A stretch of 64,000 nucleotides of DNA, from positions 1,316,947-1,380,946 of the forward strand of contig OY759729.1 of assembly GCA_963662585.1 (NCBI GenBank). The letters run 5' to 3'. The position numbers and the translations under genes are program-made. Positions 16,988 to 36,556 of the stretch are shown here, one piece after another. Position 1 is the stretch's first letter. Every line of letters begins with the position of its first letter. This DNA comes from Candidatus Cloacimonadales bacterium (lineage in GTDB: Bacteria; Cloacimonadota; Cloacimonadia; Cloacimonadales; JAFGVF01). A model generated the notes under the pieces. The model was not told where the DNA came from and ran no database searches. It saw only the letters and a program-made list of their open reading frames with translations.

Positions 16988-19969
16988 TTATTTAGTCAAT
17001 ATAATTTTTCTTGTAATATGAATATTCTTTTGTTCCAATCTAACAAAATAGATACCTGAAGCAACTCTAGAGCCTCTATTGTTATCTCCATTCCAGATAA
17101 CACTATGACTTCCTATAGCTCTCTTTTCATTAAGTAAAGATTTAACAACTTGTCCTTTTAAGTTATATATTTTAACATTAACAATACCTTCTTCTGCAAC
17201 ATTGAAAAGAATATTAGTTGTAGGATTGAAAGGATTAGGATAGTTACTCAAGCAAACTTCAGAATTTACTGCAGGAGTATAATCTTTATTTCCAACAAAT
17301 TCAAATACCCCAAGATCTGGTATTGTACCATCACTATCTGGTGTTTCTACAGGATCACCTGCATCAATACAAGGAGATGAAGGATTTAATTGATACTCAG
17401 CAAATTTATCTATAAAATCGCTCTTATCGGCATCATCATCAATATTACCTACAAAGTCTGGAACTTCGTTTATGTTAGCAATACCAGGATATATCTCGCC
17501 ATCAGGTAATGAAATATTGTTATAACGAGCATCAATATAATCGTAATTTTGGACAATGTTATTACCAGGATTTTCTTTCCAAATAATGTTATTAACCAAT
17601 TCTGATGGTGTATAACGGGAAGATAAACCTTTATCGTAATTAACTATAGTATTATGCTTCATAATATTGTTATCAATATTAGTAACATCAACACCTTTAG
17701 AGTTATTCTTGTGATAAGTGATGAATACTAGATTTCTGTTAATTGTACTTACAGAATTTGTACCACTAACTGCTATCGCAGGATCACATGATTTTACAAC
17801 ATTATTATTAATGATAGCATCAATTTTACCTGTAAAATCAATACCTTTATAATTACCTCTTCTTGCTTCTGTTTGATAGATTTCAGTATGTTCAACTTTT
17901 GCTTCAACTGAGGTATTATAGTTATTTTTCAAGTAGATTGATTTATCAAAATCTGTGATGTGCCCATTATCTACAAAGAGATTAACTGCTCCTTTAAAGT
18001 AGAGAGCTTTTGAATTTGCTCTTTCATTATTATTATCATTACTTATAACTGCGTTTAAAATATTTGCATTAACAGGTGTTGATCCTGAAACGAAATATAT
18101 AGCATTATCGTAATTTTGGATATTTATAGTATCAATATTTATAGAGTTATCACCTTTTGATTTAATTCCATAATTATTTCTAGCAGATACATTGTTAGGT
18201 AATAAGATATCAGTTAAAGTTTGTTCACCTTCAGATTTGAATTCAAATCCTATATCATAGTTTTCAACTTCAATGTTATTAGCAGTAAGGCTAATTTTAC
18301 CATCTATGGTGATACCATTAGTATTACCTCTTACATTGTTTTTCCAGCTATCTGGTGAGTAATAAATTCTTATTACATCCATAGTTGGAGTTGTTGGTTC
18401 GTGTCCGTCGTCCTCATCACCATCACCATCTGCATCTGCTTTGATTGTTATACCTTCATCATAGTTTTCAATTTCAACATCTGTAAAGGCAGGATTAATT
18501 TTACCATCTACAACAATAGCTTTTGTAGTAACACTTCTATTACTTTTCCAGCTATCTGGTGAGTAATAAATTCTTATAACATCCATAGTAGGGGTAGTTG
18601 GTTCGTGCCCGTCGTCCTCATCGCCATCACCATCTGCATCAACTTTGATTGTGATACCTTCATCATAGTTTTCTATTTCAACATCTGTAAAGGCAGGATT
18701 AATTTTACCATCTACAACAATAGCTTTTGTAGTAACACTTCTATTACTTTTCCAGCTATCTGGTGAGTAATAAATTCTTATAACATCCATAGTAGGGGTA
18801 GTTGGTTCGTGTCCGTCGTCCTCATCACCATCACCATCTGCATCAACTTTGATTGTGATACCTTCATCATAGTTTTCTATTTCAACATCTGTAAAGGCAG
18901 GATTTACTTCACCTTCAACATAGATTCCTTTAGTAGTAACTGTTCGGTCACTTTTCCAGCTATCTGGTGAGTAATAAATTCTTATAACATCCATTGTAGG
19001 AGTAGTTGGTTCGTGTCCGTCGTCCTCATCACCATCACCATCTGTATCAGCTTTAATAGTGATACCTTCATCATAGTTTTCTATTTCAATATTAGTAAAT
19101 ACAGGATTTACTTCACCTTCAACATAGATTCCTTTAGTAGTAACTGTTCGGTCATCTTTCCAGCTATCTGGTGAGTAATAAATTCTTATAACATCCATAG
19201 TTGGTGTAGTTGGTTCGTGTCCGTCGTCCTCATCCCCGTCACCATCTGTATCAGCTTTAATAGTGATACCTTCATCATAGTTTTCTATTTCAATATTAGT
19301 AAGAGTTGGCTCAACCTTAGTATCCATATAGATACCTTTTGTAGTAACAGTTCTATTATTCTTCCAACTATCTGGTGAATAATATATTCTTATAACATCC
19401 ATAGTAGGGGTAGTAGGTTCATGTCCGTCATCTTCATCACCATCACCACCTGTATCAGCTTTAATGGTAACACCAGTCATATATCCATAGATATCTACAT
19501 GATTAATTTCAGATTGATTTCCATCACCAATATAGAGTCCTTCTTCAAAATCATTTGTTCCATAACCAATAATATTAGTATAATCAACATAATTTGTTTT
19601 GTAAAGGGATAATCCTTTACCAGCACCGATGATATTTGTAAAAGTGAAATTACTACCTTCAGAGTGGACTTCAATTCCTTGCCAAATTGTTGTTTCAGAG
19701 AGACCTTGAATATAGACAAGATTATCTTCAACACCATTAACACTTAAAATTCCGTAAGCAGTAATACTTGCATCTTCAATAACTAATACTGTGACTCCAG
19801 GATCAATTGTTAATGTTTCTCCTTGAGGAATTTCAATATCAGTAGTGATAATGTAAGGACTGCCCTCTTCATTCCAATTACCATAATTAGAATTTTCTTC
19901 AATTAAAGTTTCGGAGAAGAGCCCTAAAGTTAAAAGTAAAAGACTAAATAATAATAAAAACTTTTTCAT
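16988..19969 (-). CDS. Secreted beta-helix-like surface protein with six 68-aa acidic repeats and a T9SS-type C-terminal sorting domain
   Basis: Signal peptide (MKKFLLLFSLLLLTLGLFSE). Six copies of ...ITIKADTDGDGDEDDGHEPTTPTMDVIRIYYSPDSWK.... The C-terminal ~80 aa (YPNPFNPTTNILFNV...IYNLKGQVV...SGIYFVRLE) are typical of Por/T9SS secretion tails. Confidence 0.8.
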   Translation of the reverse strand: MKKFLLLFSLLLLTLGLFSETLIEENSNYGNWNEEGSPYIITTDIEIPQGETLTIDPGVTVLVIEDASITAYGILSVNGVEDNLVYIQGLSETTIWQGIEVHSEGSNFTFTNIIGAGKGLSLYKTNYVDYTNIIGYGTNDFEEGLYIGDGNQSEINHVDIYGYMTGVTIKADTGGDGDEDDGHEPTTPTMDVIRIYYSPDSWKNNRTVTTKGIYMDTKVEPTLTNIEIENYDEGITIKADTDGDGDEDDGHEPTTPTMDVIRIYYSPDSWKDDRTVTTKGIYVEGEVNPVFTNIEIENYDEGITIKADTDGDGDEDDGHEPTTPTMDVIRIYYSPDSWKSDRTVTTKGIYVEGEVNPAFTDVEIENYDEGITIKVDADGDGDEDDGHEPTTPTMDVIRIYYSPDSWKSNRSVTTKAIVVDGKINPAFTDVEIENYDEGITIKVDADGDGDEDDGHEPTTPTMDVIRIYYSPDSWKSNRSVTTKAIVVDGKINPAFTDVEIENYDEGITIKADADGDGDEDDGHEPTTPTMDVIRIYYSPDSWKNNVRGNTNGITIDGKISLTANNIEVENYDIGFEFKSEGEQTLTDILLPNNVSARNNYGIKSKGDNSINIDTINIQNYDNAIYFVSGSTPVNANILNAVISNDNNNERANSKALYFKGAVNLFVDNGHITDFDKSIYLKNNYNTSVEAKVEHTEIYQTEARRGNYKGIDFTGKIDAIINNNVVKSCDPAIAVSGTNSVSTINRNLVFITYHKNNSKGVDVTNIDNNIMKHNTIVNYDKGLSSRYTPSELVNNIIWKENPGNNIVQNYDYIDARYNNISLPDGEIYPGIANINEVPDFVGNIDDDADKSDFIDKFAEYQLNPSSPCIDAGDPVETPDSDGTIPDLGVFEFVGNKDYTPAVNSEVCLSNYPNPFNPTTNILFNVAEEGIVNVKIYNLKGQVVKSLLNEKRAIGSHSVIWNGDNNRGSRVASGIYFVRLEQKNIHITRKIILTK
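18254..19477 (-). repeat. 204-bp in-frame tandem repeat, 6 copies
   Basis: GGTTCGTG(T/C)CCGTCGTCCTCATC recurs at 18397, 18601, 18805, 19009 and 19213, with a diverged copy at 19417. This is an exact 204-bp period. Copies 4 and 5 encode identical 68-aa units. Confidence 0.9.
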
Positions 19970-20026
19970 AATATCCTCATTTATAGGTTTATTTTTTTAA
20001 TTTTTCGATTTCATAGTTTATTATAA

Positions 20027-20042
20027 TGCAAGATAGCTTCCA
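20027..20042 (-). promoter_or_regulatory. Candidate sigma-54 (-24/-12) promoter for the T9SS repeat protein
   Basis: The minus strand reads TGGAAG-ctatc-TTGCA, with the canonical GG-N10-GC spacing. It lies about 58 nt upstream of the ATG at 19969 and immediately downstream of an NtrC-type activator gene. Confidence 0.45.
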
Positions 20043-20178
20043 TAAGTTTTTCTAATAACATATATTTTTTAAATTAATATATTCTAGAAACTTACAGTAT
20101 TTTTTTATGAAATTAACAGTCTAAATTTTCTTCTCAAAACATAATAATGAGGCAATTTTGAGAAGTTTCACACATTTG

Positions 20179-24817: not shown

Positions 24818-25447
24818 TTAGTTATTAGAAAATATATTCTCAATGACTTTAGGTAACTTAGGGATAATTCTTACTTCTATCCTTCTGTCATTTTGGCTAT
24901 AATAGCTTTCACTATCTTTATTTGAGTCTTTTTTAGGTTTTTCCGATCCGTATGAAGCTTGAACAATATCTACATTCTTTTTTAACTGATCATCTAAATT
25001 AAGTTTTATCTGTTTAACGAAAGATCTTGCCCTATTTAAACCCAATTTGTAATTATCATAACCAAATTCATCTCCAGACCTATCGGTATGCCCTTCAACA
25101 ATTATACAATACTTTTTATATCTATCATTATTTATAAGAAAATCATTCAATGCTTTGGAGAACTTTACCGCAAATGCTATCCCTTCATCATTCAACTCAG
25201 ATTTAGATATACTGAATAAAATAGATTCATTAATAATAATCTTATTCTCCATTTTTACATATTCAATGTTAGGTATATTTTCCAATAAATAACTAATATC
25301 ATTAAACTCTTTTAACTCTTCGTCTTCAAATTGTTTTATTGTAAAAAAAAATATATAAAATAGAACTAAGAAAATAAAAAACAATGAAAGAAAAATATCA
25401 ACAAAAGAAGCCCAATAATTGATATCATTTTCAGATTCGTACATCAT
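24818..25447 (-). CDS. MotB/ZorB-like protein: single TM with conserved Asp plus OmpA-like peptidoglycan-binding domain
   Basis: The TM helix WASFVDIFLSLFFIFLVLF has an embedded Asp as in MotB/ZorB. The OmpA-family motif is IIVEGHTDRSGDEFGYDNYKLGLNRARSFV. The start overlaps the upstream stop (ATGA). Confidence 0.75.
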   Translation of the reverse strand: MMYESENDINYWASFVDIFLSLFFIFLVLFYIFFFTIKQFEDEELKEFNDISYLLENIPNIEYVKMENKIIINESILFSISKSELNDEGIAFAVKFSKALNDFLINNDRYKKYCIIVEGHTDRSGDEFGYDNYKLGLNRARSFVKQIKLNLDDQLKKNVDIVQASYGSEKPKKDSNKDSESYYSQNDRRIEVRIIPKLPKVIENIFSNN

Positions 25448-27018
25448 AATCTCTTTCCGAATAAATGGCCCATAATACCCTTATTTTTGGTTGTATCAGG
25501 ACTACTTACCTTATCTTCTGATGTATGTTTATTGGATACGACATCTCTAATATTCTCTTCTAATTTCACTAATTGGTTAGAAATCTTTTTGTTAAGATTT
25601 TCATAATTTTCTATTAGATGGTTATCATCCCTAGATAATTTTAATAATTTCGTTATTTCGTCAGTATTAACTATATTAACAGATACATTTTCTTGACTTT
25701 TTATAAAACCAAAAAGATCATAAATATTTTTCTCAAATTTCTCTAGGTTCTGAGTTAATTCACTACTGAACTGAATGCTATGGTTACTGTAATCTTCCAT
25801 AATTTTGGTAGTAATTCTTGTAATATCATCAAATGCTATTTTTGCATCAATAGTTCGAATACTTACATCAGATATTTCGTTAAAATATTTCCCTAAATTT
25901 CCAACAAGTTTATCAATATTTTCAACATAATTGGGGATATCCACCATGTTTTCTAAAGATTTTGCTGATTTCACAAATGACTCAAGAGTATTATCTAATT
26001 TTAACATAGAATTTAGTGTTTGATCTGTCCTAGAATGAAATAAATTAGAAGACTGTAAAATATTCTCTATTTCTGGTAAAAGGGAATCTATGGCTGTCAA
26101 GTTGTTATTGCTTACAATATTATTTTTCAGAGCTAAAGAAGAATTTTCATCCATCCCTTGGTTTAACTTATTAAGATCACCAAAAATGGTTGTAAATTCT
26201 TGTTTTTGATTGATTAATATATCTTCATACTTCCTTAAATGCTTATCATTAATTTCAGTAAATGATTTAGTAAAATTTATAATTGTATTATTGATCAATG
26301 ACATTATACTTTCAATTCTATCAATACTCATTGCAGTTGTTTCATATTTACTTTCAATAAACGCTTTATTTTCTTCTCGATAATCTAACAAAAAATTTCC
26401 TAAAGCTACTTCTAAATTTTCGACAGAAGAGATTAATCTATTATCGAATTTAGATATGTAAGTTTTGGGCAAAAACATGGTTGAAAAGATTGTTTCAACA
26501 TCATGGATTCTACGAACAATTTCAGATTTTACTAAGGACCAAATTATACGAATAATTATTGTTGTAAATAGAGCAATAAGCGAAGTTATAAATCCAAACT
26601 TAGCTGAATCAATTAATGATAACATGATTTTCTGAGTTTCATAATCACTACCAAATGAAGAGATTCCAATTATTATTCCCAAAAATGTTCCCAATAAACC
26701 AACAATTGGTAAAATATTGGTTATTAGATTTATTTTCCTATCTGTTTTATTCAAATCATAATATATGAAATTTTTAAATATCTCAATTTTAATCTCACTT
26801 TTATTTTTGATAGAATTATACACATATAATAAATGTGGCTCTTGTCTAATAAAATCTAAATTTAACTTCATAAAGTCAGTAATACTGGAATTACTAAATA
26901 ACTCATTATTACTTTCGATGTCTTCTATTCTTTCCAATTGATGATATATAGATAGTAGCAAAACTGTTAACCCAACGATAACAATTAGAGCTGACACGAT
27001 CATTGCTCCAATAAACAT
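25444..27018 (-). CDS. MotA/ExbB/ZorA-like proton-channel protein with ~350-aa helical C-terminal tail
   Basis: Three TM helices with a MotA_ExbB-type signature (NILPIVGLLGTFLGIIIGI...FGFITSLIALFTTIIIRI). The remaining ~350 aa are low-complexity alpha-helical/coiled-coil sequence. An AAGAGG RBS lies upstream. Confidence 0.7.
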   Translation of the reverse strand: MFIGAMIVSALIVIVGLTVLLLSIYHQLERIEDIESNNELFSNSSITDFMKLNLDFIRQEPHLLYVYNSIKNKSEIKIEIFKNFIYYDLNKTDRKINLITNILPIVGLLGTFLGIIIGISSFGSDYETQKIMLSLIDSAKFGFITSLIALFTTIIIRIIWSLVKSEIVRRIHDVETIFSTMFLPKTYISKFDNRLISSVENLEVALGNFLLDYREENKAFIESKYETTAMSIDRIESIMSLINNTIINFTKSFTEINDKHLRKYEDILINQKQEFTTIFGDLNKLNQGMDENSSLALKNNIVSNNNLTAIDSLLPEIENILQSSNLFHSRTDQTLNSMLKLDNTLESFVKSAKSLENMVDIPNYVENIDKLVGNLGKYFNEISDVSIRTIDAKIAFDDITRITTKIMEDYSNHSIQFSSELTQNLEKFEKNIYDLFGFIKSQENVSVNIVNTDEITKLLKLSRDDNHLIENYENLNKKISNQLVKLEENIRDVVSNKHTSEDKVSSPDTTKNKGIMGHLFGKRL

Positions 27019-27029
27019 ATTTAACCTCT

Positions 27030-27935
27030 TTATTCTAAAATAATTTTACCTTTCTGCTGAATTATGAATGTCCCTTGAGAACTCTTAGTGTATGTAGGGT
27101 TTGAAACAATTTTAAAGTCTTTCTTTTGCACTGTTTCATTATTAATAACTGGATATTCAAAGGCATCACTATACCTTGAAAAAAAACTGTTATAATTATT
27201 GATATTAATTTTCATTTGAATTGTTAGTACATATTCATTGTCTTCAAGTTCTTCTAAAAACATATTTGAGTCAGCAGAATCAGTTTCTAATTCCTTAGAA
27301 AATGTTTTAAAAGTTACCCATATCTTTTCTTTTACAATCTCCGGTATATCATCTTTAGTAACTTCTGGTTTCTTATTACTTTCGGTAGCAGAATATTGAA
27401 CTAGATTATTGTTAGAAAGTTCTTTAGATGAATGATTACTTACACCATCTTTTTTTTTTTGGTTTTCTCCTTGGTTTGTCTCTCTGTTATTAATTCTATT
27501 ATTAATGATTAATTCTTTAGGTCTTTGAGGAACTTCTTTCTCTTTCTCCTCTTCTACATTTGTTTTTATATCATTAGTTTTTAGTTTTACTCTTTCTTCT
27601 AGTAAAGAGATGTCCCTTTTTAGTGTATTTAATTTATAATTTAAGTCATCTTTTTTTGTTTCAAGATGTTCAAATAATGAACGATAATCTCTACGATAAT
27701 CTCTAAATGATAAATTATATTTTATGTCTATAGTATAAATTATAACATCTATCAATACTAATAAAGAAGCAATAATGAATACAAAGATATAAGCATAATA
27801 TTTCTTGAAGCTTATTAAATTCAACTGGTTTAAGGGTTTAAAAAACATAAGAAGAATAGTTACAATAAAAATCACTGTTATTATATAAAAGGTAATTCTC
27901 AATGTTATTATTCTATTAGAATATTTACTTTTCAT
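27030..27935 (-). CDS. Two-TM coiled-coil protein, unknown function
   Basis: Two N-terminal TM helices, a coiled-coil segment (LNYKLNTLKRDISLLEERVKLK), a polar low-complexity linker and a ~100-aa C-terminal domain. The gene is tightly packed in the operon. Confidence 0.6.
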   Translation of the reverse strand: MKSKYSNRIITLRITFYIITVIFIVTILLMFFKPLNQLNLISFKKYYAYIFVFIIASLLVLIDVIIYTIDIKYNLSFRDYRRDYRSLFEHLETKKDDLNYKLNTLKRDISLLEERVKLKTNDIKTNVEEEKEKEVPQRPKELIINNRINNRETNQGENQKKKDGVSNHSSKELSNNNLVQYSATESNKKPEVTKDDIPEIVKEKIWVTFKTFSKELETDSADSNMFLEELEDNEYVLTIQMKININNYNSFFSRYSDAFEYPVINNETVQKKDFKIVSNPTYTKSSQGTFIIQQKGKIILE

Positions 27936-27939
27936 TAGA

Positions 27940-30900
27940 CTACTCCATTAGTAAATGATTTAGTTTTTTGATTAAATCCTGCATTCCGATAATAAAGATA
28001 GAACTAGACAAAGTTTGATATTTTTGATAATTATCAGTCATTGAAGTTCTAATTTTTCCCTCAATTTTCCCCCAATCATCAAATAAATCAAATAATAATT
28101 GATCCATATTCTTTAATTTTTCATCTTTGCTAAATATGTCTTTATACAGCTTACTTTCCTTGACAACATTAAAGAAATAAACATTAAATTTATATAAGTT
28201 TGTCTCTTCTTTGATTAAATTTAACTCAGATAATTTATTATCTTTTTCATTAAATATCTCATCAAATTCTGATATTTCTACAGAACATTCCTTAACGTTT
28301 CCATTAACATAAAGATTTTCATTAATCACAGGTGTATAAACTGAGTTCATGTCAGAGAATTTTTTATCCATATTGCACAATCCATATACAACTTCAGATT
28401 TATTTGAACTTGAAACTATGAAGTCAATATCCTTATCAACTTTTTCATCTGAATGTCTTAGACTGAAATTAATGATAGTTTTGTAAATTTCCAATTCATC
28501 CTCTAGAATTTTATTCTCTACTGGACTTGTCCAAGTAATTGATCTTATTCCATTTCCTGCTAAACAGACATCAATTTTGGTGTAATCATTAACATAATTT
28601 TTCATTTGTGAGCCAATTTCAAAAAATAGAGCACTATAAAAATATAACAATATTAAGCGAGGTCTATTAAATTTATCTTGAGTTGTCATTTTTTTCATAG
28701 ACTGAGTACTGATCTTTGAAACCATGATATTATAAATTGTTTTGAAATCTCCAGAATATGAATTCAATTCATTCTCGTTAACTTTATTGTCATATAGATA
28801 TCTTTCTTTAATTATATCATATAAAGGAGAAATTATTTTCATATTGCTATCTTTATAACCAATAACATTGTTACCTGCCCATAAATGACTAAATAGCATC
28901 AAAATTCCACCATTTTTCCAAATTGAAATATCTGATGATCCCCCTCCAACATCTATTACAATTGAGAGATTTGATGAGTTTTTTTCAATTTTACCAATAT
29001 GATTAAAGTACATTAAGCTTGCTTTACTTTCATCATAAGATTCAATATTCGGGTTGTTTAATATGTTACTCCACATGATATTATAATTTCTAATCTGTTC
29101 ACTAGAGAAGGCTTTCGGATAAGCCCATCTAAATAAAGTACTTTCGAGATTAACACGTTTTTTAATAAGCTCTGCATAAACTAAAAAGAATATAGTTTTG
29201 AGAAATGCTTCAGACCTTACTTGATTTTCATTATTAATATGCCATTTTAAGTTATAATATTCTTCTAGATTTATTCTCAAAATATTTAAATTTTTCACAT
29301 AGGAAATTACAGAGTCACGTATTGGTATCGGATGTTCATTTCTTTTATCTATATAAATCCTAGTATTAAATGGCATATTTACAGAATAATCTTTACTATT
29401 ATCATTTAAAAAAACGTTAGGTAAAAACCAATTAGTTATATTTTTCCAAAAATCTGTAATTATTGGATTTGCTTTTATTTCTTTATCTGTTGGAGATATA
29501 GATGATATAAATTCATGTTTGTTAATATTTATCTCATCAAATAAAGAATTATACTTCAACAATTCACAATTAGTATCATTTTGATGATCATCAATCAATA
29601 TTGCTACATTAGTGTGGGAAGTCCCAAAATCAAAACCAACAATTGCATTGTTTTTACAATTCTCAACATCAGTTAAATTGCTTAAATTCAGTATCAAATA
29701 ATTATAATTTTTGGATGTCTTTTCAATAAGCTTAATATATACTGGAAGTTTTTTTAAAGCCGCTACTTCAATTTGAGTTACATCTTGCTCCCCTGTTTTT
29801 CGAGAAGGATCATAAATTATAGGTGTAAATTTTGAATCATAAAATTCAACATTTAAATCAAATTTATCATTCAAACTCTTAGATACTAGCAAATAATATG
29901 GAAGTCGCCATTGTTTAGAATTTATTTTAGGCCATATAAGTACATTGGGTACAGGAGTTTCTTCATTAACAAATTTCAACAATATATTTTCTTCATTACT
30001 ATTAACACCTTGATGATAATATTTATTAATATTGATAATTCCATTCTTAGTAGGTATATCTAAACTAACTTTAATACCTTTACTACCTGCATCTGAGATA
30101 GACAGATATTTTTCAACATCAGCATAGTCAAAGTAGGTGAAATACAAATCAGTCAGTGGTATTGTATATTTTGATAGAGAGCTTTCTTCCCCTAGAACAA
30201 AATTATTTTTATTGAAATCTACATTGTTTTGAATAATAAACGGAGTAAAAAAATCGTGGAAAGGACTTATCCAAGGATATTTTACTTGTTCACCTGGAAG
30301 AACAAATCTATTCTTATTTTTTAATTCCGATAGTTTATAATTTTTATACCATTTATAACTATCATAAATAACACTATTTACCATATTATGGTCAGGATTT
30401 ATTATCAATGGTAGTATCCTTTGGTCACTTTTACTAGGATTAATTATTAAACCAGAGCTTAAAATACCACCTTTATAGATTCTTAATTTATCAAGCATTC
30501 CTTCTTCATTATTGAAAAGAGGGTCATTTTCATCTGGCAATTTAGAAAAACTAATATTACAATTTTCACAAATACCTTTGTCTTCCAGAAGAGCATTATA
30601 AAGTACCTTATAATCTGGGTTACTCTTTAGTTCAGGCAACAGATAATACATAATATATATTTGAAACCGCTCAGGTCTGTCTTTTAATAAAACAGGTTTT
30701 CTAAAGTACCTCTTTAAGTATCGATTCTCTGTTATTTCCTGTGAAATGAAAAATAAGGAATTGGGACATGTGCCTCCTAAAACAATCTCTCGATTACTTA
30801 GTGTTTTAATTGTTAAAATATTGATTTTCTTTATTTCTGGGCCAAAAGGAAACAGCTCAAAAATCTCTCTAATAATACTATCTTTATTATTTTCAAAAGT

Positions 30901-31200
30901 TACTTCATGTCTAATGATTTCAAATTCAAATCTATCACGGAAAAATAACATTTCTAATAAATCAAGTAAATAGGACATATAAACTATATGTAATGGGTTT
31001 TTATGATCTTCAATAATATTTATAAAATGAATCATTCTTTCCCAGGGAGATGGAACAGAATATCCTTGGCTGGAACTTTCACTACTATTTTGTTCAATCA
31101 TGTTATAAAAATTCTCAAAATCTTTGCTAAAGTCAATCCATTTACCAGGTGCTGGATTAGACATCTGGTTCTTATTCTTAGGTAGTAAGTGCCTTGGCAT
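27940..31200 (-). CDS. 1086-aa protein: unknown N-terminal half fused to an Hsp70/actin-fold (ASKHA) ATPase-like C-terminal half
   Basis: Phosphate-1-like VGFDFGTSHTNVA (aa 521-533), phosphate-2-like VIDVGGGSSDISIW (aa 748-761), adenosine-like DVCLAGNGIRS (aa 877-887) and KSEVVYGLC (aa 934-942) appear in the canonical order. There is no Walker A or DEAD/H box. A strong AAGGAGA RBS lies upstream. Confidence 0.65.
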   Translation of the reverse strand: MPRHLLPKNKNQMSNPAPGKWIDFSKDFENFYNMIEQNSSESSSQGYSVPSPWERMIHFINIIEDHKNPLHIVYMSYLLDLLEMLFFRDRFEFEIIRHEVTFENNKDSIIREIFELFPFGPEIKKINILTIKTLSNREIVLGGTCPNSLFFISQEITENRYLKRYFRKPVLLKDRPERFQIYIMYYLLPELKSNPDYKVLYNALLEDKGICENCNISFSKLPDENDPLFNNEEGMLDKLRIYKGGILSSGLIINPSKSDQRILPLIINPDHNMVNSVIYDSYKWYKNYKLSELKNKNRFVLPGEQVKYPWISPFHDFFTPFIIQNNVDFNKNNFVLGEESSLSKYTIPLTDLYFTYFDYADVEKYLSISDAGSKGIKVSLDIPTKNGIININKYYHQGVNSNEENILLKFVNEETPVPNVLIWPKINSKQWRLPYYLLVSKSLNDKFDLNVEFYDSKFTPIIYDPSRKTGEQDVTQIEVAALKKLPVYIKLIEKTSKNYNYLILNLSNLTDVENCKNNAIVGFDFGTSHTNVAILIDDHQNDTNCELLKYNSLFDEININKHEFISSISPTDKEIKANPIITDFWKNITNWFLPNVFLNDNSKDYSVNMPFNTRIYIDKRNEHPIPIRDSVISYVKNLNILRINLEEYYNLKWHINNENQVRSEAFLKTIFFLVYAELIKKRVNLESTLFRWAYPKAFSSEQIRNYNIMWSNILNNPNIESYDESKASLMYFNHIGKIEKNSSNLSIVIDVGGGSSDISIWKNGGILMLFSHLWAGNNVIGYKDSNMKIISPLYDIIKERYLYDNKVNENELNSYSGDFKTIYNIMVSKISTQSMKKMTTQDKFNRPRLILLYFYSALFFEIGSQMKNYVNDYTKIDVCLAGNGIRSITWTSPVENKILEDELEIYKTIINFSLRHSDEKVDKDIDFIVSSSNKSEVVYGLCNMDKKFSDMNSVYTPVINENLYVNGNVKECSVEISEFDEIFNEKDNKLSELNLIKEETNLYKFNVYFFNVVKESKLYKDIFSKDEKLKNMDQLLFDLFDDWGKIEGKIRTSMTDNYQKYQTLSSSIFIIGMQDLIKKLNHLLME

Positions 31201-31209
31201 CTTGTCTCC

Positions 31210-32580
31210 TTACAAAATATTGTTTAAGTTTTTTATGATTTTATCAATAAAGTCACCCGTAAGATCAATATCATCAAATAATATTTTATCAAAGTATGAA
31301 GAATCTTTCTTTCTGTATTTATCTTTGTTATTAAATAATAATGTAGATAAATTTAGCTCTGAATCAATGATCTTCAAAGCAGGCGCATTATTACTCATTT
31401 GCCAAATCCAGATTTTGAACAATTCCATAAATTCAATTAGTTTTTTAAACTCGTTAGAATTTTCTATAAATGTAGGATAAGTAATATCTAATTTTCTTAA
31501 CCAACCAATTCTATTTATTATTTTCTTGTTTTTGCTAATTAGTAATCCATTCAAATCAATCAAGTAATTGTATATTAATCCCATTTTTTCAAATGGCTCA
31601 TTCTTCTTTTTATGGGGTAGGTCTTCAGACATTAGCGAATAGTCATCAATATTTTCAGTGGGATTACTCGCACCAATTCTCATAAATGATGAATATTTTT
31701 TGTTTTCCCAAAAATTAATAGCTGAATATCCTGCAAGTAATTCTATAAAATGAGAATCATTGATCTGAGTTTTATTACCAATAGAATAATTATCAATTAT
31801 TTTTGTATTTGCAAAATCTTCTCCGATGATATAAACACTGTCAAAATTCTCATACTTCTCTTTATAGTACTGACAGGAAGAAATAGTATTACCAATGAAG
31901 TTAGCAGAATCTGGCAATATTTCATCTTTATCATTAGTATGTAAGTTTTTGTTAAGATGAAAATATGGAAGAATCAGAGATCCGCCAACAGAAGTTTTCG
32001 GCGATTGATTCTTTATCATTCGCGATATAACAGGAAAACCTGAAGCTCCTGTACCTCCAAATACTGAACTAAACAGAAACACTTTATCATCTTCATTTTT
32101 TTTAAGTTTCTGGATTATTAAATCCCATGGAAATAATTTACTATTATTTATAAAGTTTGACATTAACAACGAACCTATCGATGGCCTAGCCCTATAACCA
32201 AAAGTTAGATCTAAATTAAGTTCCTTTTTTGAATATAAAAGGTCTAATAATGCTTGTTCATCTTCGTTTAAACCGTTATAATTTACTATTTTTTTTAGAT
32301 TATTGTTTTCATTATTAATATTAACATGAGGATTTATCCTTTTAATTAAAGATATTGAAGTAAAAAATAATGAACCTTTGCTTGGTTCCTTTAAATGTTG
32401 ACGGATTTCCTGATAATGTTTAGCAAGATCTTCAGCCCTATTTGCATTACCATTCCCAGCATCTGGATCAATAATATATATATCTACTTCACTTGGACCT
32501 AATCCCATAGCACAGAGAAATATAAAAGATTCAAGACATCTTGTTCCTGTCCCACCAACTGCAAAAATATGATAAGTCAC
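31210..32580 (-). CDS. Tubulin/FtsZ-superfamily-like GTPase (Tubulin_2 / FtsZ-like type)
   Basis: An N-terminal Gly loop IFAVGGTGTR (aa 5-14) and a tubulin-signature-like FGGTGASGFPV (aa 174-184) follow a beta-strand (KVFLFSSVF). The GTG start overlaps the upstream TAG stop (TAGTG). Confidence 0.6.
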   Translation of the reverse strand: MTYHIFAVGGTGTRCLESFIFLCAMGLGPSEVDIYIIDPDAGNGNANRAEDLAKHYQEIRQHLKEPSKGSLFFTSISLIKRINPHVNINNENNNLKKIVNYNGLNEDEQALLDLLYSKKELNLDLTFGYRARPSIGSLLMSNFINNSKLFPWDLIIQKLKKNEDDKVFLFSSVFGGTGASGFPVISRMIKNQSPKTSVGGSLILPYFHLNKNLHTNDKDEILPDSANFIGNTISSCQYYKEKYENFDSVYIIGEDFANTKIIDNYSIGNKTQINDSHFIELLAGYSAINFWENKKYSSFMRIGASNPTENIDDYSLMSEDLPHKKKNEPFEKMGLIYNYLIDLNGLLISKNKKIINRIGWLRKLDITYPTFIENSNEFKKLIEFMELFKIWIWQMSNNAPALKIIDSELNLSTLLFNNKDKYRKKDSSYFDKILFDDIDLTGDFIDKIIKNLNNIL

Positions 32581-32999
32581 TAAAAGCTCCTTTTATCGAA
32601 GATTCTTGTTATATATATCTTTTCTTTAAAAACACCTATTTCATTTAAAATCGTTATAATAATAATATAAACTAAAGCATTAACAATAAAGTGATTAATC
32701 ACAAACATAAATATCATTGATGTTATATCTATTGTATCAAGAATAGCTAACTTTTTTATTGAAAGATAGATAGTATATATAGTATTCACACAAATATCAA
32801 TCACAAAAAACAACCAAAAATAATATCTACCTTTTATCCTACTATAAGGAATAAAATAGTAACCAATAATTAAAAAAATTATAGTTCCCAAACCAACTAA
32901 CATTGCCCGATCCATAGTAGTCATCCATGTATTGAGATTATCGGTTCCTAGTTTTGTAAGTTCTCCATATAATAAAAAATATACTATTTTATAAAGCAT
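32580..32999 (-). CDS. Small 4-TM membrane protein, unknown function
   Basis: 139 aa with about four hydrophobic helices. It starts 1 nt after the upstream stop and its own stop overlaps the next start. Confidence 0.55.
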   Translation of the reverse strand: MLYKIVYFLLYGELTKLGTDNLNTWMTTMDRAMLVGLGTIIFLIIGYYFIPYSRIKGRYYFWLFFVIDICVNTIYTIYLSIKKLAILDTIDITSMIFMFVINHFIVNALVYIIIITILNEIGVFKEKIYITRIFDKRSF

Positions 33000-33000
33000 T

Positions 33001-34281
33001 CTATTTCCTTTTATTAATTTTTAAGTAATACTCACTATTGCATAATTGCCCACTAACTAGCATTTTTTCATTAATTGCTTCAATTAATGAACTGATTTTA
33101 TATGTCTTTTCTTTATTTTCTAAAATACTATCATCTTCAGTGTTATTCAGATAAACCCATTTATATTTATCAATACTATCCCGAAAAGTTAATCTACATA
33201 AATACTCTCCAATCGAAGAATCCCCAAAAGGTAACAAAAAAGTTATCTTTTTTCCCTGATTACCAGAAATCACATTCTGAGAATTAAGATTAATCGACCC
33301 ACTATATTTGGAATTTACTGAAACTAATGAATCTGTTATGTTTATTATTTTATAATCAATAACATTTCCTATATCATAAGTAAAGTTTTTCAAAGTTATT
33401 CGTAAAGAATCAGCATTTTCATTCAAATTATACTCAGTCAATGGGATATTTTCAAATTGTTTATTCATATAAAAGGTAGGTGGAAAATTATAGCCATCAA
33501 TATTATCAGAATATTTTAGATTGTTTGTCATTTTCTCACTAAATCTAATTGAAAAATCGAAAATATTTTTTACTTTCTTATTAATGAGATATTCGCTATT
33601 ACTTCTACCTATGAATAACCCATAAATAGGTCTTTTTATTTGTAATACTTTAGGAAGATATTGCTTCTTTGCTTCTGAATAATAGTTTCCTAAAAAATCA
33701 ATTTTTTTCATATAAATATTTAAGAAACCTTTTTTTGCAACCAGATCCGAAAGTTTAGCTGGAAATAATTGAGAATCGATTTCTGAGTATTCAGTTGATA
33801 GGATAAGATCTGTTAAAATTAAGTAGACAGAGTTAAAGTCATCTTTTTCAATAAAATCTATAACTTTTAAAAAATTGGTATATTGGTCATCATATTTCAA
33901 ATGTTTCTCATTGTTTTTATCAGGCTTGATGTAATAAATTGATTCCGCAATATCACCTTCAATTTCTTTAATACTAGATCCAAAAGTATATAATTTAATA
34001 TCTTCATTGCTAAAATTGCTACATATTGAAGAAATTAATCCTACCATACTACTATTACCAGTTGTATATCCTTTCATTGTTGCACTTACATCAATGAAAA
34101 TCTTCATACTCTTTAATGAGTCAGAAGTTGAAGGTTGATAAACTCCGAAATATTCATTTAACACTGATAAATTTTCTTTTTTATCTTCAAATAAATTACT
34201 ATCGTTAATTCCAGTATACTTATTACAACTAATGAGCAATGCCAATAAACATAACATAAAAATGAATGATTTCACAGTCAT
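33001..34281 (-). CDS. vWA-like lipoprotein (start revised to internal ATG)
   Basis: The lipoprotein signal MTVKSFIFMLCLLALLISC starts at the ATG at 34281, preceded by a GGAGA RBS. A candidate promoter lies inside the longer listed ORF. vWA/MIDAS-like motifs occur in order: KIFIDVSATMKG (DxSxT), IKLYTFGSS, YTNFLKVIDFI, VYLILTDL. Confidence 0.55.
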   Translation of the reverse strand: MTVKSFIFMLCLLALLISCNKYTGINDSNLFEDKKENLSVLNEYFGVYQPSTSDSLKSMKIFIDVSATMKGYTTGNSSMVGLISSICSNFSNEDIKLYTFGSSIKEIEGDIAESIYYIKPDKNNEKHLKYDDQYTNFLKVIDFIEKDDFNSVYLILTDLILSTEYSEIDSQLFPAKLSDLVAKKGFLNIYMKKIDFLGNYYSEAKKQYLPKVLQIKRPIYGLFIGRSNSEYLINKKVKNIFDFSIRFSEKMTNNLKYSDNIDGYNFPPTFYMNKQFENIPLTEYNLNENADSLRITLKNFTYDIGNVIDYKIINITDSLVSVNSKYSGSINLNSQNVISGNQGKKITFLLPFGDSSIGEYLCRLTFRDSIDKYKWVYLNNTEDDSILENKEKTYKISSLIEAINEKMLVSGQLCNSEYYLKINKRK

Positions 34282-34309
34282 TATAATCTCCATTTTACTT
34301 AGTATACAA

Positions 34310-34338
34310 ATTAATAAAGGCATATCTTTTTTTGTCAA
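34310..34338 (-). promoter_or_regulatory. Candidate sigma-70 promoter of the seven-gene operon
   Basis: The minus strand reads TTGACA (34338-34333), 17 nt, then ATTAAT (34315-34310), about 25-30 nt upstream of the ATG at 34281. Confidence 0.4.
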
Positions 34339-34450
34339 GAGTTTATTTATTAGTAATAAAAATTTGGCATCATAATTGAATCATAACAATATAACTATCT
34401 ATATTAACAATGAAGATTTATTAACTAAGCTAACATTTAACACAAATCGA

Positions 34451-36556
34451 GTAGGGTGGTGCGTTAGCACCATCCCTCTCACAGAACCGTGCGTACGGGA
34501 CTCGTACACGGCTCCTGATAAACCTTGTAATTATTCATAATAATTAAATAAAACACTTGTAGGTTTCGATAGTAAGTCATATAGCCCTAATTGCTCAAAC
34601 CATTCATTAGGTAAAGCTCTATGAATATGATAACAACCAGAATTCCTCCAATGTGTCATAGATATTTTCGGAAAATCACTTTTATGCCCAACTCTTCTAA
34701 GTTGTTGGTGAAAAGCTTTCCAACTTTTCCATTCCCGCATTTTCTTCATTCTTAGTCGCCGCCTTATCCATGATAATAGAGACTGAAAGACTCCTTTGCA
34801 ATTTGCCACCCTAAAGTAATTCGACCAACCTCTCAATATCGGATTAAGTCTTTTAATCATTGTCTGGACATTAATTCCGCTATTCCGTGGAGTCAGTGAC
34901 CGAATCTTATCTTTGAACGCTTTTACTCTTTTATCCTCTATCTTTACATATGATTCATGTATTTCGAAGCCAAGATACTTGACTCCTTTAAATACACTCG
35001 CAATATGTGTCTTTTCTTCATTTACGATGAGATAAATTGAGTTTAGATATTCTACCGCAATTCGTTGATATTGTTCTGCTTTTTTCTTAGTCTTAGCAAA
35101 AAGTAAAATGTCATCAGCATAGCGTACTATCTCGATTCCTCGACTTTTCATTTCTTGGTCAAAACTATCAAGATATATGTTCATAAGAAGTGGAGAGATT
35201 ACCCCTCCTTGTGGACTTCCTACTTCAGTTTCGCTATACTTCCCTTCTTGCATAACACCAGACTTTAAGATTTTCTCTATCAACTTTAATAATGTTCCGT
35301 CACTTATTTTCCTATTTAATGATTGCATTATGAATTTATGATTTAATGTATCAAAACATTTTGATAAATCCATATCCACTACAAAAGGAAGCTCTTCCTG
35401 AACCATTAATATATGTGCTTTAGCCACTGCCTTTTGACAACTTTTGTTGGGACGGTAGCCATAGCTTTGTGGATGAAAATCAGGTTCAAAAATTGGTTGG
35501 ATGATGTTATTTATTGCCTGCTGTACGATTCTATCTTTTACAGTAGGTATTCCTAATGGCCTCATCTTACCATTTCCTTTAGGTATCTCTACCCGTTTCA
35601 CAGGTGATGGGATATACTTCCCACTTTTCAATTCTAAATGAATCTGCTCTAAGTTCTCTTGTAGAGTCTCACCAAACTTAGATATAGTAATATTATCTAT
35701 ACCTTCTGCACCTCTATTTTTCTTTACCTTTAGGAAAGATTCATAGAGATTACCTTTTGAGTAAACTTTATCAATTAAACTGTACCACTTTTTCATTTAG
35801 TTTCTCCTTTTTCACAATAAACAATGTTTAAATTATACTTTCAAATGACAGTTAATTCAATGAAGACCTTCGAAGTTTTTAGCATAAAGCAATCTATCAA
35901 AGATTTTATAGGTTTTGACTATTATCCTTTTTTTAACTTCATCTACTCAGTCTCGTAAGGTCATGATAGAAAGAAGGTACTCACCACCGTCTATCCGAGC
36001 CTTGAATCTTTCGATTCTCTTCGTTTCCTACTTTTAAGAAAATATCTCTTTAATTATGTTTATTCTTTGGTTTATCTTCATCCCTTCACATGAGATATTT
36101 CCTTTTGAAAAATATCCCCCAATATTACTAAGAATATTGTCCCCTCTGTTTTATCCTCCAGTCTGTCACCAGCTTTCATAGGCAAAGGGTTAGTCACTAC
36201 TACGGAATCATCTGCCACCTGCTTATGCTTAATACAACTCTTGCCTTTCAGCTTGTAGTCATAGTTACTCTATTAGAGACATTAACAGGCTTCCCCAGTT
36301 AAGCTATCCTGCCTGAATGTAAATCCATCTGTTGTAATCCATGTAATCGACTGACTTTTGGGCGTTCTCACTTTTCGAAGAGTTACCCACTACATGAACC
36401 AAAATCAGTTTACTTTCGCTATGTTCCACATTCTTCCTGCGTCTTACTTCAGACCCTGCCGTTGCCAGCAACGCCCTTGACCTCAGATTGACTTCCTGTC
36501 AGTTGGGTGTCAGGACTTCTTTCAGTCCATCGGCTCAGATAACATTCTGGGCAAAC
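34451..36556 (-). mobile_element. Group II intron (full length, ORF in domain IV)
   Basis: On the minus strand, domain V GAGCCGUGUACGAGUCCCGUACGCACGGUUC (AGC triad) and a domain VI-like hairpin ending ...CACCACCCUAC at about 34451 directly follow the RT ORF. The GC-richer structured 5' part runs to about 36556 (GUUUGCCCAGA..., resembling the GUGCGCCCAGA-type 5' end). The 5' boundary is uncertain by about 10 nt. Confidence 0.8.
34531..35796 (-). CDS. Group II intron reverse transcriptase/maturase (no endonuclease domain)
   Basis: RT motifs including YADD (VRYADDILLF), RPLGIPTVKDRIVQQA and a maturase X motif (RGWSNYFR). At 421 aa there is no C-terminal HNH domain. Confidence 0.9.
   Translation of the reverse strand: MKKWYSLIDKVYSKGNLYESFLKVKKNRGAEGIDNITISKFGETLQENLEQIHLELKSGKYIPSPVKRVEIPKGNGKMRPLGIPTVKDRIVQQAINNIIQPIFEPDFHPQSYGYRPNKSCQKAVAKAHILMVQEELPFVVDMDLSKCFDTLNHKFIMQSLNRKISDGTLLKLIEKILKSGVMQEGKYSETEVGSPQGGVISPLLMNIYLDSFDQEMKSRGIEIVRYADDILLFAKTKKKAEQYQRIAVEYLNSIYLIVNEEKTHIASVFKGVKYLGFEIHESYVKIEDKRVKAFKDKIRSLTPRNSGINVQTMIKRLNPILRGWSNYFRVANCKGVFQSLLSWIRRRLRMKKMREWKSWKAFHQQLRRVGHKSDFPKISMTHWRNSGCYHIHRALPNEWFEQLGLYDLLSKPTSVLFNYYE

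Follow-up and report, generated by a model that had tools for sequence, protein, structure and literature searches.

Zorya systems are built around a motor in the membrane that detects damage to the envelope and whose tail recruits nucleases. In the type I system of Escherichia coli, ZorA and ZorB form a ZorA5B2 motor driven by the proton-motive force, and both the ZorB residue D26 and the ZorA tail are required to recruit the cytosolic partners after infection; T147 and S184 of E. coli ZorA (EcZorA) constitute an ion-selectivity filter that touches this aspartate (PMC11946911). A second described group comprises the operons of FtsZl1 (Pfam Tubulin_2). In the parts of the survey that deal with them, a divergent tubulin-like GTPase is reported beside a vWA protein with an intact metal-ion-dependent adhesion site (MIDAS) and membrane proteins, and OmpA-family proteins are said to be linked in 'several genomes' (PMC2875224). 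Here, we describe a ZorA/ZorB-like gene pair in a 64-kb stretch of contig OY759729.1 from a Candidatus Cloacimonadales bacterium (hereafter the window, in which all window coordinates are counted). A first-pass annotation of this DNA had reported a ZorA/ZorB-like stator pair without recognizable Zorya effectors. The feature is real and was correctly recognized, but the description fell short of its context: rather than being an orphan, the stator pair forms the 3' module of a conserved cassette of seven genes, and this cassette is a widespread, unnamed Zorya-like system.

The ZorA-like and ZorB-like subunits

Gene 6 encodes the ZorA-like subunit and gene 7 the ZorB-like subunit (Table 1). A hydropathy scan of gene 6 gave three transmembrane (TM) segments (residues 1-29, 96-124 and 138-165), followed by about 359 residues without any. 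The three-TM MotA_ExbB core described in the first-pass annotation was thereby recovered; LPIVGLLGTFLGIIIGI was found at residues 103-119, and Pfam MotA_ExbB was matched with an E-value of 9.5e-5 (22.6 bits, just below the cut-off of 22.9). The PADLOC model ZorA2 was matched at 3.2e-9, and in NCBIfam the scores were 22.7 bits for ZorA_2, 19.0 for ZorA_3 and 16.7 for exbB2 (E 0.006). When gene 6 was compared with all PDB sequences, the matches were ZorA chains only (8qyd and variants, E 0.02-0.3). In the phmmer alignment to ZorA of 8qyd/8qyh, T111 pairs with T147 of EcZorA and S146 with S184, and both residues, together with G107, G110 and G114, are invariant among six aligned orthologues.

The tail (residues 166-524) had been described as about 350 amino acids of uninterrupted helical sequence. 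Its helical nature was upheld by an AlphaFold2 (AF2) model, in which the core has a predicted local distance difference test (pLDDT) score of 80-92 and helices run from residue ~128 to ~495; they are interrupted by four short breaks, so the word 'uninterrupted' has to be dropped. The hydrophobic residues of the tail recur with a coiled-coil-like period of 3.45-3.5 residues (z ~7 against shuffled sequences), and in the tails of 19 orthologues the period is 3.45-3.6 residues (z 6-23). Across the cassettes the tails measure 276-556 amino acids (median ~350), with a Pro plus Gly content of 4-8%. The helical tail is probably about 50 nm long and would extend into the cytoplasm. It was also observed that the tails finish in a short aromatic and basic tip, GIMGHLFGKRL in the window (25444-25500), ...WGFYTRKKDK in locus L002, ...WGFFRRKKKE in L003 and ...WGIYRVKRGK in L006; this tip could be a membrane-binding or partner-binding motif.

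Gene 7 has one TM segment (residues 9-41, hydropathy scan). The MotB-type TM aspartate (FVDIF) that had been claimed for it lies in YWASFVDIF as D17, and the claimed OmpA peptidoglycan-binding motif is present as EGHTDRSG...NYKLGLNRARSFV, with Pfam OmpA matched above its gathering score (E 2.7e-6). The PADLOC model ZorB1 was matched over the full length (residues 3-205) at 1.8e-19. The best PDB match was 8vvn_B, the ZorB of a Shewanella type I ZorAB (E 2.6e-6), and E. coli ZorB (EcZorB, 8qyd_F) was matched at E 0.013. The orthologues all have W12, S14 and D17, and they keep the peptidoglycan-binding motif N..L(S/G)..RA. By homology, the two proteins probably assemble into a ZorA5:ZorB2 complex, and the conserved residues suggest that Asp17 of ZorB with Thr111 and Ser146 of ZorA probably forms the proton path.

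The stop codon of gene 6 and the start codon of gene 7 share four nucleotides, ATGA (context ttATGAtg). The overlap had been noted correctly, but the fixed stoichiometry that was derived from it is unjustified; such an overlap is a sign that translation of the two genes is coupled, and the stators of Zorya systems are 5:2 complexes.

Family assignment of the stator

In an exhaustive HMMER search of 1.84 billion representative proteins with gene 6, only 47 proteins were found at E <= 1e-3, which shows that the protein is very divergent. NCBIfam ZorA_2 is matched by 43 of these 47, no TolQ, ExbB or MotA family appears among the 25 relatives listed with NCBIfam, and nearly all of the longer relatives (31 of 33) match PADLOC ZorA models. 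A profile built from 23 cassette A subunits gave 22-203 bits for ZorA relatives, in comparison with 16.6 for E. coli TolQ, 5.2 for ExbB and 2.1 for MotA; the corresponding ZorB profile gave 20.1 bits for E. coli MotB, 2.4 for ExbD and 0.3 for TolR. The A subunit is thus nearest to ZorA and the B subunit is of the ZorB/MotB type. In a neighbor-joining tree of 92 core columns, 80 of 100 bootstraps supported a split between TolQ, ExbB and MotA on one side and every ZorA-like sequence on the other. The kinship with ZorA and ZorB proposed in the first-pass annotation was therefore borne out by the profiles, the core tree, the OmpA-type B subunit and the helical tail, and, judged by sequence, the pair is a genuine ZorAB-type ion-driven (proton) stator.

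Some observations temper this assignment. The scores of both subunits stay far below the curated NCBIfam cut-offs (22.7 bits against 100 for gene 6 and ZorA_2, 16.2 against 400 for gene 7 and ZorB1). The tree separates the core from TolQ, ExbB and MotA, but nesting among Zorya types I-III, for which a phylogeny had been proposed as a check, received a bootstrap of only 35%. When the AF2 model of gene 6 was compared with the PDB by Foldseek, TolQ and ZorA structures were ranked alike, none of them at E <= 0.001. It may be asked whether the pair is instead an ExbB/TolQ-type stator for Ton or Tol transport, or a flagellar MotAB-type stator for motility. The Foldseek ranking agrees with the former, as do the three-TM topology that the A subunit shares with ExbB and TolQ and the weak exbB2 match, and a distant cassette clade is on average about equally far from TolQ and ZorA in core distance. 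Against this stand the core distance of MotA, which is the largest of all, the OmpA domain of the partner, which fits ZorB or MotB rather than ExbD or TolR, a coiled-coil tail of about 350 amino acids, which is a hallmark of ZorA, the low profile scores of TolQ, ExbB and MotA, and their separate branch in the tree. The context was said to be neither flagellar nor Tol/Exb, and indeed no TonB, TolA, ExbD or flagellar gene and no second stator-like gene was seen in the window when the N-termini of the larger open reading frames (ORFs) were read by eye. The core does not group with ExbB or TolQ and the tail is predicted to be helical rather than globular. Such a transport or motility stator is already largely refuted and can be regarded as very improbable.

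The seven-gene operon

The pair occupies the last two positions of seven co-directional genes (34338..24818, minus strand, ~9.5 kb) with intergenic gaps of -4 to +11 nt (Table 1). The G+C fraction of this island is 0.25-0.28 vs 0.31-0.37 in its flanks. The operon is intact: all ORFs are whole, and the orthologues show no variation at the catalytic and ion-path residues. Promoter and terminator scans of the operon gave results no better than shuffled sequence. The relatives of the cassette are designated by locus labels (L001-L108), to which their coordinates and hidden Markov model (HMM) counts refer.

Table 1 Features of the window cassette, its surroundings and related loci (aa, amino acids; IS, insertion sequence)
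Feature	Locus	Coordinates	Strand	Description
Gene 1	Window	33001..34338	-	Putative exported vWA-like lipoprotein; listed ORF 445 aa
Gene 2	Window	32580..32999	-	Small polytopic membrane protein, 139 aa; ~4 TM by hydropathy scan
Gene 3	Window	31210..32580	-	FtsZl1/Tubulin_2-type tubulin-like GTPase, 456 aa
Gene 4	Window	27940..31200	-	Giant Hsp70/actin-fold (ASKHA) ATPase-like protein, 1086 aa
Gene 5	Window	27030..27935	-	Membrane-anchored coiled-coil protein, 301 aa
Gene 6	Window	25444..27018	-	ZorA-like stator A subunit, 524 aa; 3-TM core and ~350-aa helical cytoplasmic tail
Gene 7	Window	24818..25447	-	ZorB-like stator B subunit, 209 aa; N-terminal TM with D17 and OmpA-type peptidoglycan-binding domain
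Group II intron D1-D4	Window	36304..36471	-	Rfam match
Group II intron domain V/VI	Window	34446..34516	-	Rfam match
Group II intron ORF	Window	34531..35796	-	Reverse transcriptase/maturase
Cassette	L002			Partial
Cassette	L003-5			Genes 1-7 in order: 408, 133, 481, 1083, 210, 491, 203 aa
Cassette	L006			Genes 1-7 in order: 411, 127, 483, 1082, 220, 495, 217 aa
Cassette	L008 (Ignavibacteriaceae), L009/10			All seven genes, more distant version
Four-gene core	L094			Prevotella sp. oral taxon 299, NC_022111; no ZorAB
Four-gene core	L095	37627-47534		Gloeothece verrucosa PCC 7822 plasmid NC_014503, mobilizable; no ZorAB
ZorA-tail fragment	L057	15415-15990		180-190 aa (profile ~303-490); no ZorB
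ZorA-tail fragment	L058	15504-16043		180-190 aa (profile ~303-490); no ZorB
ZorA-tail fragment	L060	7303-7869		180-190 aa (profile ~303-490); no ZorB
Hydrolase after ZorB	L006	10163-10582		SNase
Hydrolase after ZorB	L008	11967-12983		Trypsin_2 protease
Hydrolase after ZorB	L009 (L009/10)	14311-15189		Endonuclease_NS
Hydrolase after ZorB	L027	12472-13029		SNase, behind IS element
Hydrolase after ZorB	L043	18145-19473		Trypsin_2 protease; SNase
Hydrolase after ZorB	L073	18482-19213		Trypsin_2 protease
Hydrolase after ZorB	L077	8626-9168		Retropepsin-like (Asp) protease
Hydrolase after ZorB	L079	18052-18813		Trypsin_2 protease
Hydrolase after ZorB	L072, L081, L086, L089			Trypsin_2 protease

The true start of gene 1 is likely the ATG at 34281, which gives a protein beginning MTVKSFIFMLCLLALLISC... 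In each of the six aligned orthologues, a lipobox cysteine comes after a signal peptide, and all of them contain a MIDAS-like D/E-x-S-x-S/T motif as well as a T downstream of it and a TD motif. The best PDB match of the gene 1 profile was the vWA domain of TRAP (4hql, E 0.055), with an alignment that spans the MIDAS motifs, and in Pfam there were only faint matches to VWA_2 (0.15, one member) and DUF2201; a vWA assignment is weakly suggested by these similarities. Orthologues of gene 1 were found in about 60 loci. Gene 2 shares one nucleotide with gene 3, and with an HMM of six of its orthologues it was placed between the genes for the vWA-like and the tubulin-like protein at 33 loci.

Gene 3 has two invariant motifs, the T1-like GGTGxR (residues 9-14) and the T4 signature SvFGGTGASGfP (172-183). 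Its orthologues match Pfam Tubulin (5 of 6) and Tubulin_2 (4 of 6), and in the PDB its profile matched the Tubulin/FtsZ GTPase 3zid (E 7e-4). In gene 4, the N-terminal ~520 residues are uncharacterized and the ASKHA motifs lie in the C-terminal half: 51 sequences share, without variation, DFGTS(H/N)T (524-530), D(V/I)GGG(S/T)(S/T)D (750-757) and AGNG(S)R (881-886), the order of which fits the phosphate-1 (DxGT), phosphate-2 (DxGGGT) and adenosine motifs. With hhalign, the profile of these 51 sequences aligned over the phosphate-2 block both to residues 136-210 of E. coli DnaK (89.8% probability, E 1.8e-6) and to FtsA (91% probability, E 1.1e-6); weak PDB matches to MreB, BiP, DnaK, FtsA and EutJ fall on both phosphate-binding motifs. 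An AF2 model of gene 4 from a three-sequence alignment had a pLDDT of 30. Gene 5 combines two N-terminal TM segments (by hydropathy), a low-complexity or coiled-coil linker and a small conserved C-terminal domain, the last of which matches its L002 counterpart with a BLAST E-value of 1e-5. Alignment of six counterparts showed that the architecture is kept while the sequence diverges fast, such that its HMM catches close relatives only, and in most cassettes this slot holds a protein of 200-300 amino acids. In L106-L108, the ZorA-like gene directly follows the Hsp70-like gene and gene 5 is missing.

When the five upstream proteins were scanned with PADLOC, no ZorC, ZorD, ZorE, ZorF or ZorG was matched, in agreement with the first-pass annotation, and a Walker A (P-loop) motif was looked for in the cassette proteins and found in none. 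The five genes are likely functional partners of the ZorAB-like pair.

Conservation of the cassette

The same seven-gene order recurs in more than 20 unrelated loci of metagenomes or metagenome-assembled genomes (MAGs), with 20-40% protein identity, and in IMG/VR contigs. It was first met on the contigs that encode the best ZorA-like matches (L003-5, L006 and, in part, L002), with proteins of similar sizes. Gene-by-gene homology of the cassettes listed in Table 1 is backed by BLAST and PADLOC. It should be mentioned that a word-indexed homologue search was nearly blind to these AT-rich, divergent proteins and that a profile search missed known orthologues; L008, a MAG locus, is the one taken from a scan of genome contigs that was swamped by the generic Hsp70 pattern. 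A metagenome scan with the tubulin-like alignment gave at least 545 relatives, from which 80 loci were retrieved for a census with cassette HMMs. In these 80 loci, the genes for the vWA-like, small TM, tubulin-like and Hsp70-like proteins are nearly always together, and about 17 metagenome loci with the full cassette were added.

In the loci with enough downstream sequence, ZorAB was present in 27 and absent in 17. A remnant of the ZorA tail is retained in three of the latter, and a tail-only fragment without ZorB points to a decayed stator. In the remaining loci without ZorAB, including L001, the Prevotella replicon and the Gloeothece plasmid, other genes follow the four-gene core; the cores of the latter two are annotated only as 'tubulin-like doman-containing protein' (NCBI, Gloeothece) and hypothetical proteins. 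The core is also carried by 12 IMG/VR loci, eight of them with ZorAB. Isolated phage genomes gave no match to the tubulin-like protein or to two of the IMG/VR loci, which leaves the 'viral' label of these contigs unconfirmed. In three IMG/VR loci (L100, L101 and L103; e.g., L100:17540-18949), one ZorA-like gene is followed by two tandem ZorB-like genes (217 and 250 amino acids).

The tubulin-like, Hsp70-like, ZorA, ZorB and vWA-like proteins of 19 non-redundant full cassettes diverge in step, their pairwise divergences being correlated with Spearman coefficients of 0.79-0.93. Hence, ZorAB appears to have been inherited with its partners and not repeatedly parked beside them.

The variable gene after ZorB and the genomic surroundings

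In many relatives, the position after ZorB is taken by a hydrolase with a lipoprotein signal peptide, the kind of which varies (Table 1). Conflict systems typically show a constant core with a swappable enzyme slot (Kaur et al. 2020, PMC7159879). In L079, a canonical FtsZ gene (Tubulin plus FtsZ_C, 18842-20098) lies directly downstream of the cassette protease, which may be a coincidence or a functional link. A DUF6804 protein is encoded just downstream of two otherwise dissimilar cassettes (L009:15167-16606 and L074:12319-12627). Some related loci have neighbors of a mobile or defense type: integrases, a relaxase, Type ISP/Eco57I restriction-modification genes, PD-(D/E)XK and a DEAD/ResIII helicase.

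In the window, a complete group II intron (34446-36471, minus strand) lies about 110 bp upstream of gene 1, between it and the butyrate kinase gene. It was considered as a component of the system and rejected, being absent from all related loci examined. Further away, a secreted protein of 993 amino acids (16988-19969, minus strand) contains six near-identical repeats of about 75 residues (...ITIKADTDGDGDEDDGHEPTTPTMDVIRIYYSPDSWK...) and what resembles, by eye, a C-terminal sorting domain of the type IX secretion system kind.

Proposed function and alternatives

We consider it somewhat likelier than a coin toss (a probability of about 0.55) that the cassette is a Zorya-like, envelope-spanning conflict or defense system. 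This estimate is based on the affinity to ZorA, the island of atypical G+C content, a distribution that is patchy and includes mobile elements, stator decay and IS insertion in some loci, the variable slot and the restriction-modification, integrase and relaxase genes that neighbor some loci. ZorAB would be the power and signaling module of a cassette in which other partners replace the Zorya nucleases. What was observed are the identities and motifs of the genes, their synteny across loci and their joint divergence; from these we infer the 5:2 stoichiometry of ZorAB, the direction of signaling, any polymerization and the defense role.

In such a system, the vWA-like lipoprotein would reside in the periplasm, in many relatives together with one or two exported hydrolases, the small four-TM protein and the TM-anchored coiled-coil protein (likely a membrane adaptor) in the inner membrane, and the FtsZl1 tubulin-like GTPase and the giant Hsp70/actin-fold ATPase in the cytoplasm. 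An envelope perturbation or a ligand would be caught by the vWA lipoprotein, the peptidoglycan-binding domain of ZorB, or both. The stator would then be engaged and proton flow would turn ZorA with its tail, which may recruit or activate the membrane-proximal tubulin-like and actin-like nucleoside triphosphatases (NTPases) through assembly or remodeling on site. The exported hydrolases, where present, would give a periplasmic or extracellular output. A more specific version can be put forward only tentatively: the rotary ZorAB tail may directly control the tubulin-like GTPase and the actin/Hsp70-like ATPase, in an immune or envelope-surveillance machine that uses proton flow where the envelope is damaged to drive cytoskeletal assembly there, with the vWA lipoprotein as sensor and the exported proteases and nucleases as output. 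It would amount to a fourth, mechanistically distinct Zorya class.

Several findings weigh against a defense role. Genes 1-5 match no known defense model in PADLOC except for a weak match of gene 4 to PDC-M61B, and neither a nuclease nor a protease is encoded in the window cassette, the 587 bp between the ZorB gene and alaS holding no ORF longer than 62 amino acids. Its neighbors are housekeeping genes (alaS, a sigma-54 regulator and butyrate kinase), and the flanks of the related loci are mixed, including antiporter subunits, a P-type ATPase and AraC regulators. The hydrolases after ZorB are exported lipoproteins and would accordingly act in the periplasm or extracellularly, whereas the Zorya nucleases are cytosolic. 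In addition, the correlated divergences are partly expected from a common organismal phylogeny.

Some plausibility attaches to a non-immune envelope machine, the motor of which would transduce the proton-motive force as Tol-Pal and ExbBD-TonB do and, with the cytoskeletal NTPases, remodel the membrane, form vesicles, or display or release lipoproteins for feeding, adhesion, gliding or biofilm formation. The gliding machinery Agl-Glt of Myxococcus, which combines a TolQR-type motor with the actin-like MreB and also has a small GTPase and, as adhesin, the vWA lipoprotein CglB, counts in its favor. So do the lipoprotein signal peptides of the vWA-like protein and of all the variable hydrolases, which place the visible outputs outside the cytoplasm, and the housekeeping genes that adjoin the cassette in the window and at many other loci. 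Membrane remodeling or vesicle biogenesis was also proposed for FtsZl1-vWA-OmpA operons in the parts of the survey concerned with them (Makarova and Koonin, PMC2875224). Such a machine is a possibility, but a distinctly less probable one than defense: the stator groups with ZorA, the sole known role of which is phage defense, and the distribution is patchy and extends to IMG/VR contigs and a mobilizable plasmid, with atypical G+C content of the window island. Loss or decay of the stator and IS insertion in several loci fit a dispensable accessory system, and the last slot varies as effector slots do. If, on the other hand, the pair were the remnant of a Zorya system that had lost its effectors, its adjacency to the five upstream genes would be coincidental. 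No ZorC/D/E/F/G was detected and the scores against ZorA and ZorB models are weak, as such an origin would have it; the idea is nevertheless already contradicted by the conserved synteny, the seven-gene order being kept in the divergent loci with genes that diverge together, by the narrow gaps between the genes and by the intact ORFs with their invariant catalytic and ion-path residues, and little credence is given to it.

Significance

A Zorya-type motor is here coupled to a different conserved set of partners, which includes tubulin and actin/Hsp70 homologues. In the literature searched, no paper was found that joins ZorAB to tubulin-like or Hsp70-like partners or that names a further Zorya type. 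If the defense role is true, the modularity of the ZorAB sensor goes well beyond types I-III and bacterial immunity has a link to cytoskeleton-like NTPases; otherwise, the cassette would be the first evidence of ZorA-type tailed motors acting outside immunity. In either case, a testable context is provided for the FtsZl1/Tubulin_2 family, which has been without a function since 2010, and a fourth Zorya class, if real, would give this branch of the tubulin superfamily its first function. The 'OmpA family' partners noted in 2010 include ZorB-type stator subunits. With its compact size and hundreds of metagenomic tubulin-like relatives, the cassette is experimentally tractable.

Comparison with known systems

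With Zorya types I-III (ZorAB plus ZorCD, ZorE or ZorFG), the cassette shares a three-TM ZorA with the Thr/Ser filter and a long helical tail, a ZorB with a TM aspartate (D26 in EcZorB, D17 here) and an OmpA-like peptidoglycan-binding domain, and adjacent, overlapping A and B genes at one end of the operon. It differs in that two membrane proteins, a vWA-like lipoprotein, a tubulin-like GTPase and an ASKHA ATPase take the place of the subtype effectors, and in that ZorAB comes last, at the 3' end, behind its partners. Those cassettes that have hydrolases export them as lipoproteins, whereas the Zorya nucleases ZorD and ZorE are cytosolic, and the median tail is shorter than the roughly 500 residues of E. 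coli ZorA (residues ~223-729; PMC11946911). Since no ZorC/D/E/F/G was found and the scores lie under the curated cut-offs, the cassette does not belong to Zorya types I-III.

The TolQR-TolA-Pal and ExbBD-TonB systems resemble the cassette in having an inner-membrane motor of the 5:2 type with a three-TM A subunit, coupling of the proton-motive force to the wall or outer membrane, and lipoprotein partners. They differ by a TolR/ExbD-type B subunit and a TolA or TonB partner, and have no long cytoplasmic tail. The flagellar MotAB and PomAB stators have a four-TM MotA with a large cytoplasmic torque-generating domain and a flagellar context, in contrast to the three TM segments of gene 6, and E. 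coli MotA scored 2.1 bits with the cassette A-subunit profile.

In the predicted DO-GTPase/GAP1-N2 conflict systems, tubulin-domain, vWA (some of them extracytoplasmic) and HSP70-fold proteins are co-encoded and are thought to form NTP-dependent assemblies (PMC7159879). They have a constant core with variable effectors, as the cassette does, but their defining components are DO-GTPases, GAP1 and FNIII proteins, no evident counterpart of which is present in the cassette, and most of them come from Firmicutes and Actinobacteria. Assignment of the cassette to this group was rejected because no cassette protein has a P-loop, and MotA, MotB, ExbB and TolQ do not occur in the text of Kaur et al. (2020; PMC7159879).

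The FtsZl1 operons, as described in the pertinent parts of the survey, contain P-loop GTPases, protein kinases and OmpA 'porin-like' proteins, whereas the cassette is devoid of Walker A motifs; a MotA/ZorA-type partner and an Hsp70/actin-fold ATPase, both present in the cassette, are not described in those parts (PMC2875224). Gene 3 does not have the long coiled-coil and large alpha-helical C-terminal domain typical of FtsZl1. It does have the GTPase domain by which FtsZl1 is recognized, with T1 and T4 (GGGTGSG-like) loops, in which GGTGxR and FGGTGASG are invariant, and with neither an FtsZ_C nor a Tubulin_C domain, and the cassette is evidently one branch of the FtsZl1-vWA-OmpA assemblage of Makarova and Koonin (2010).

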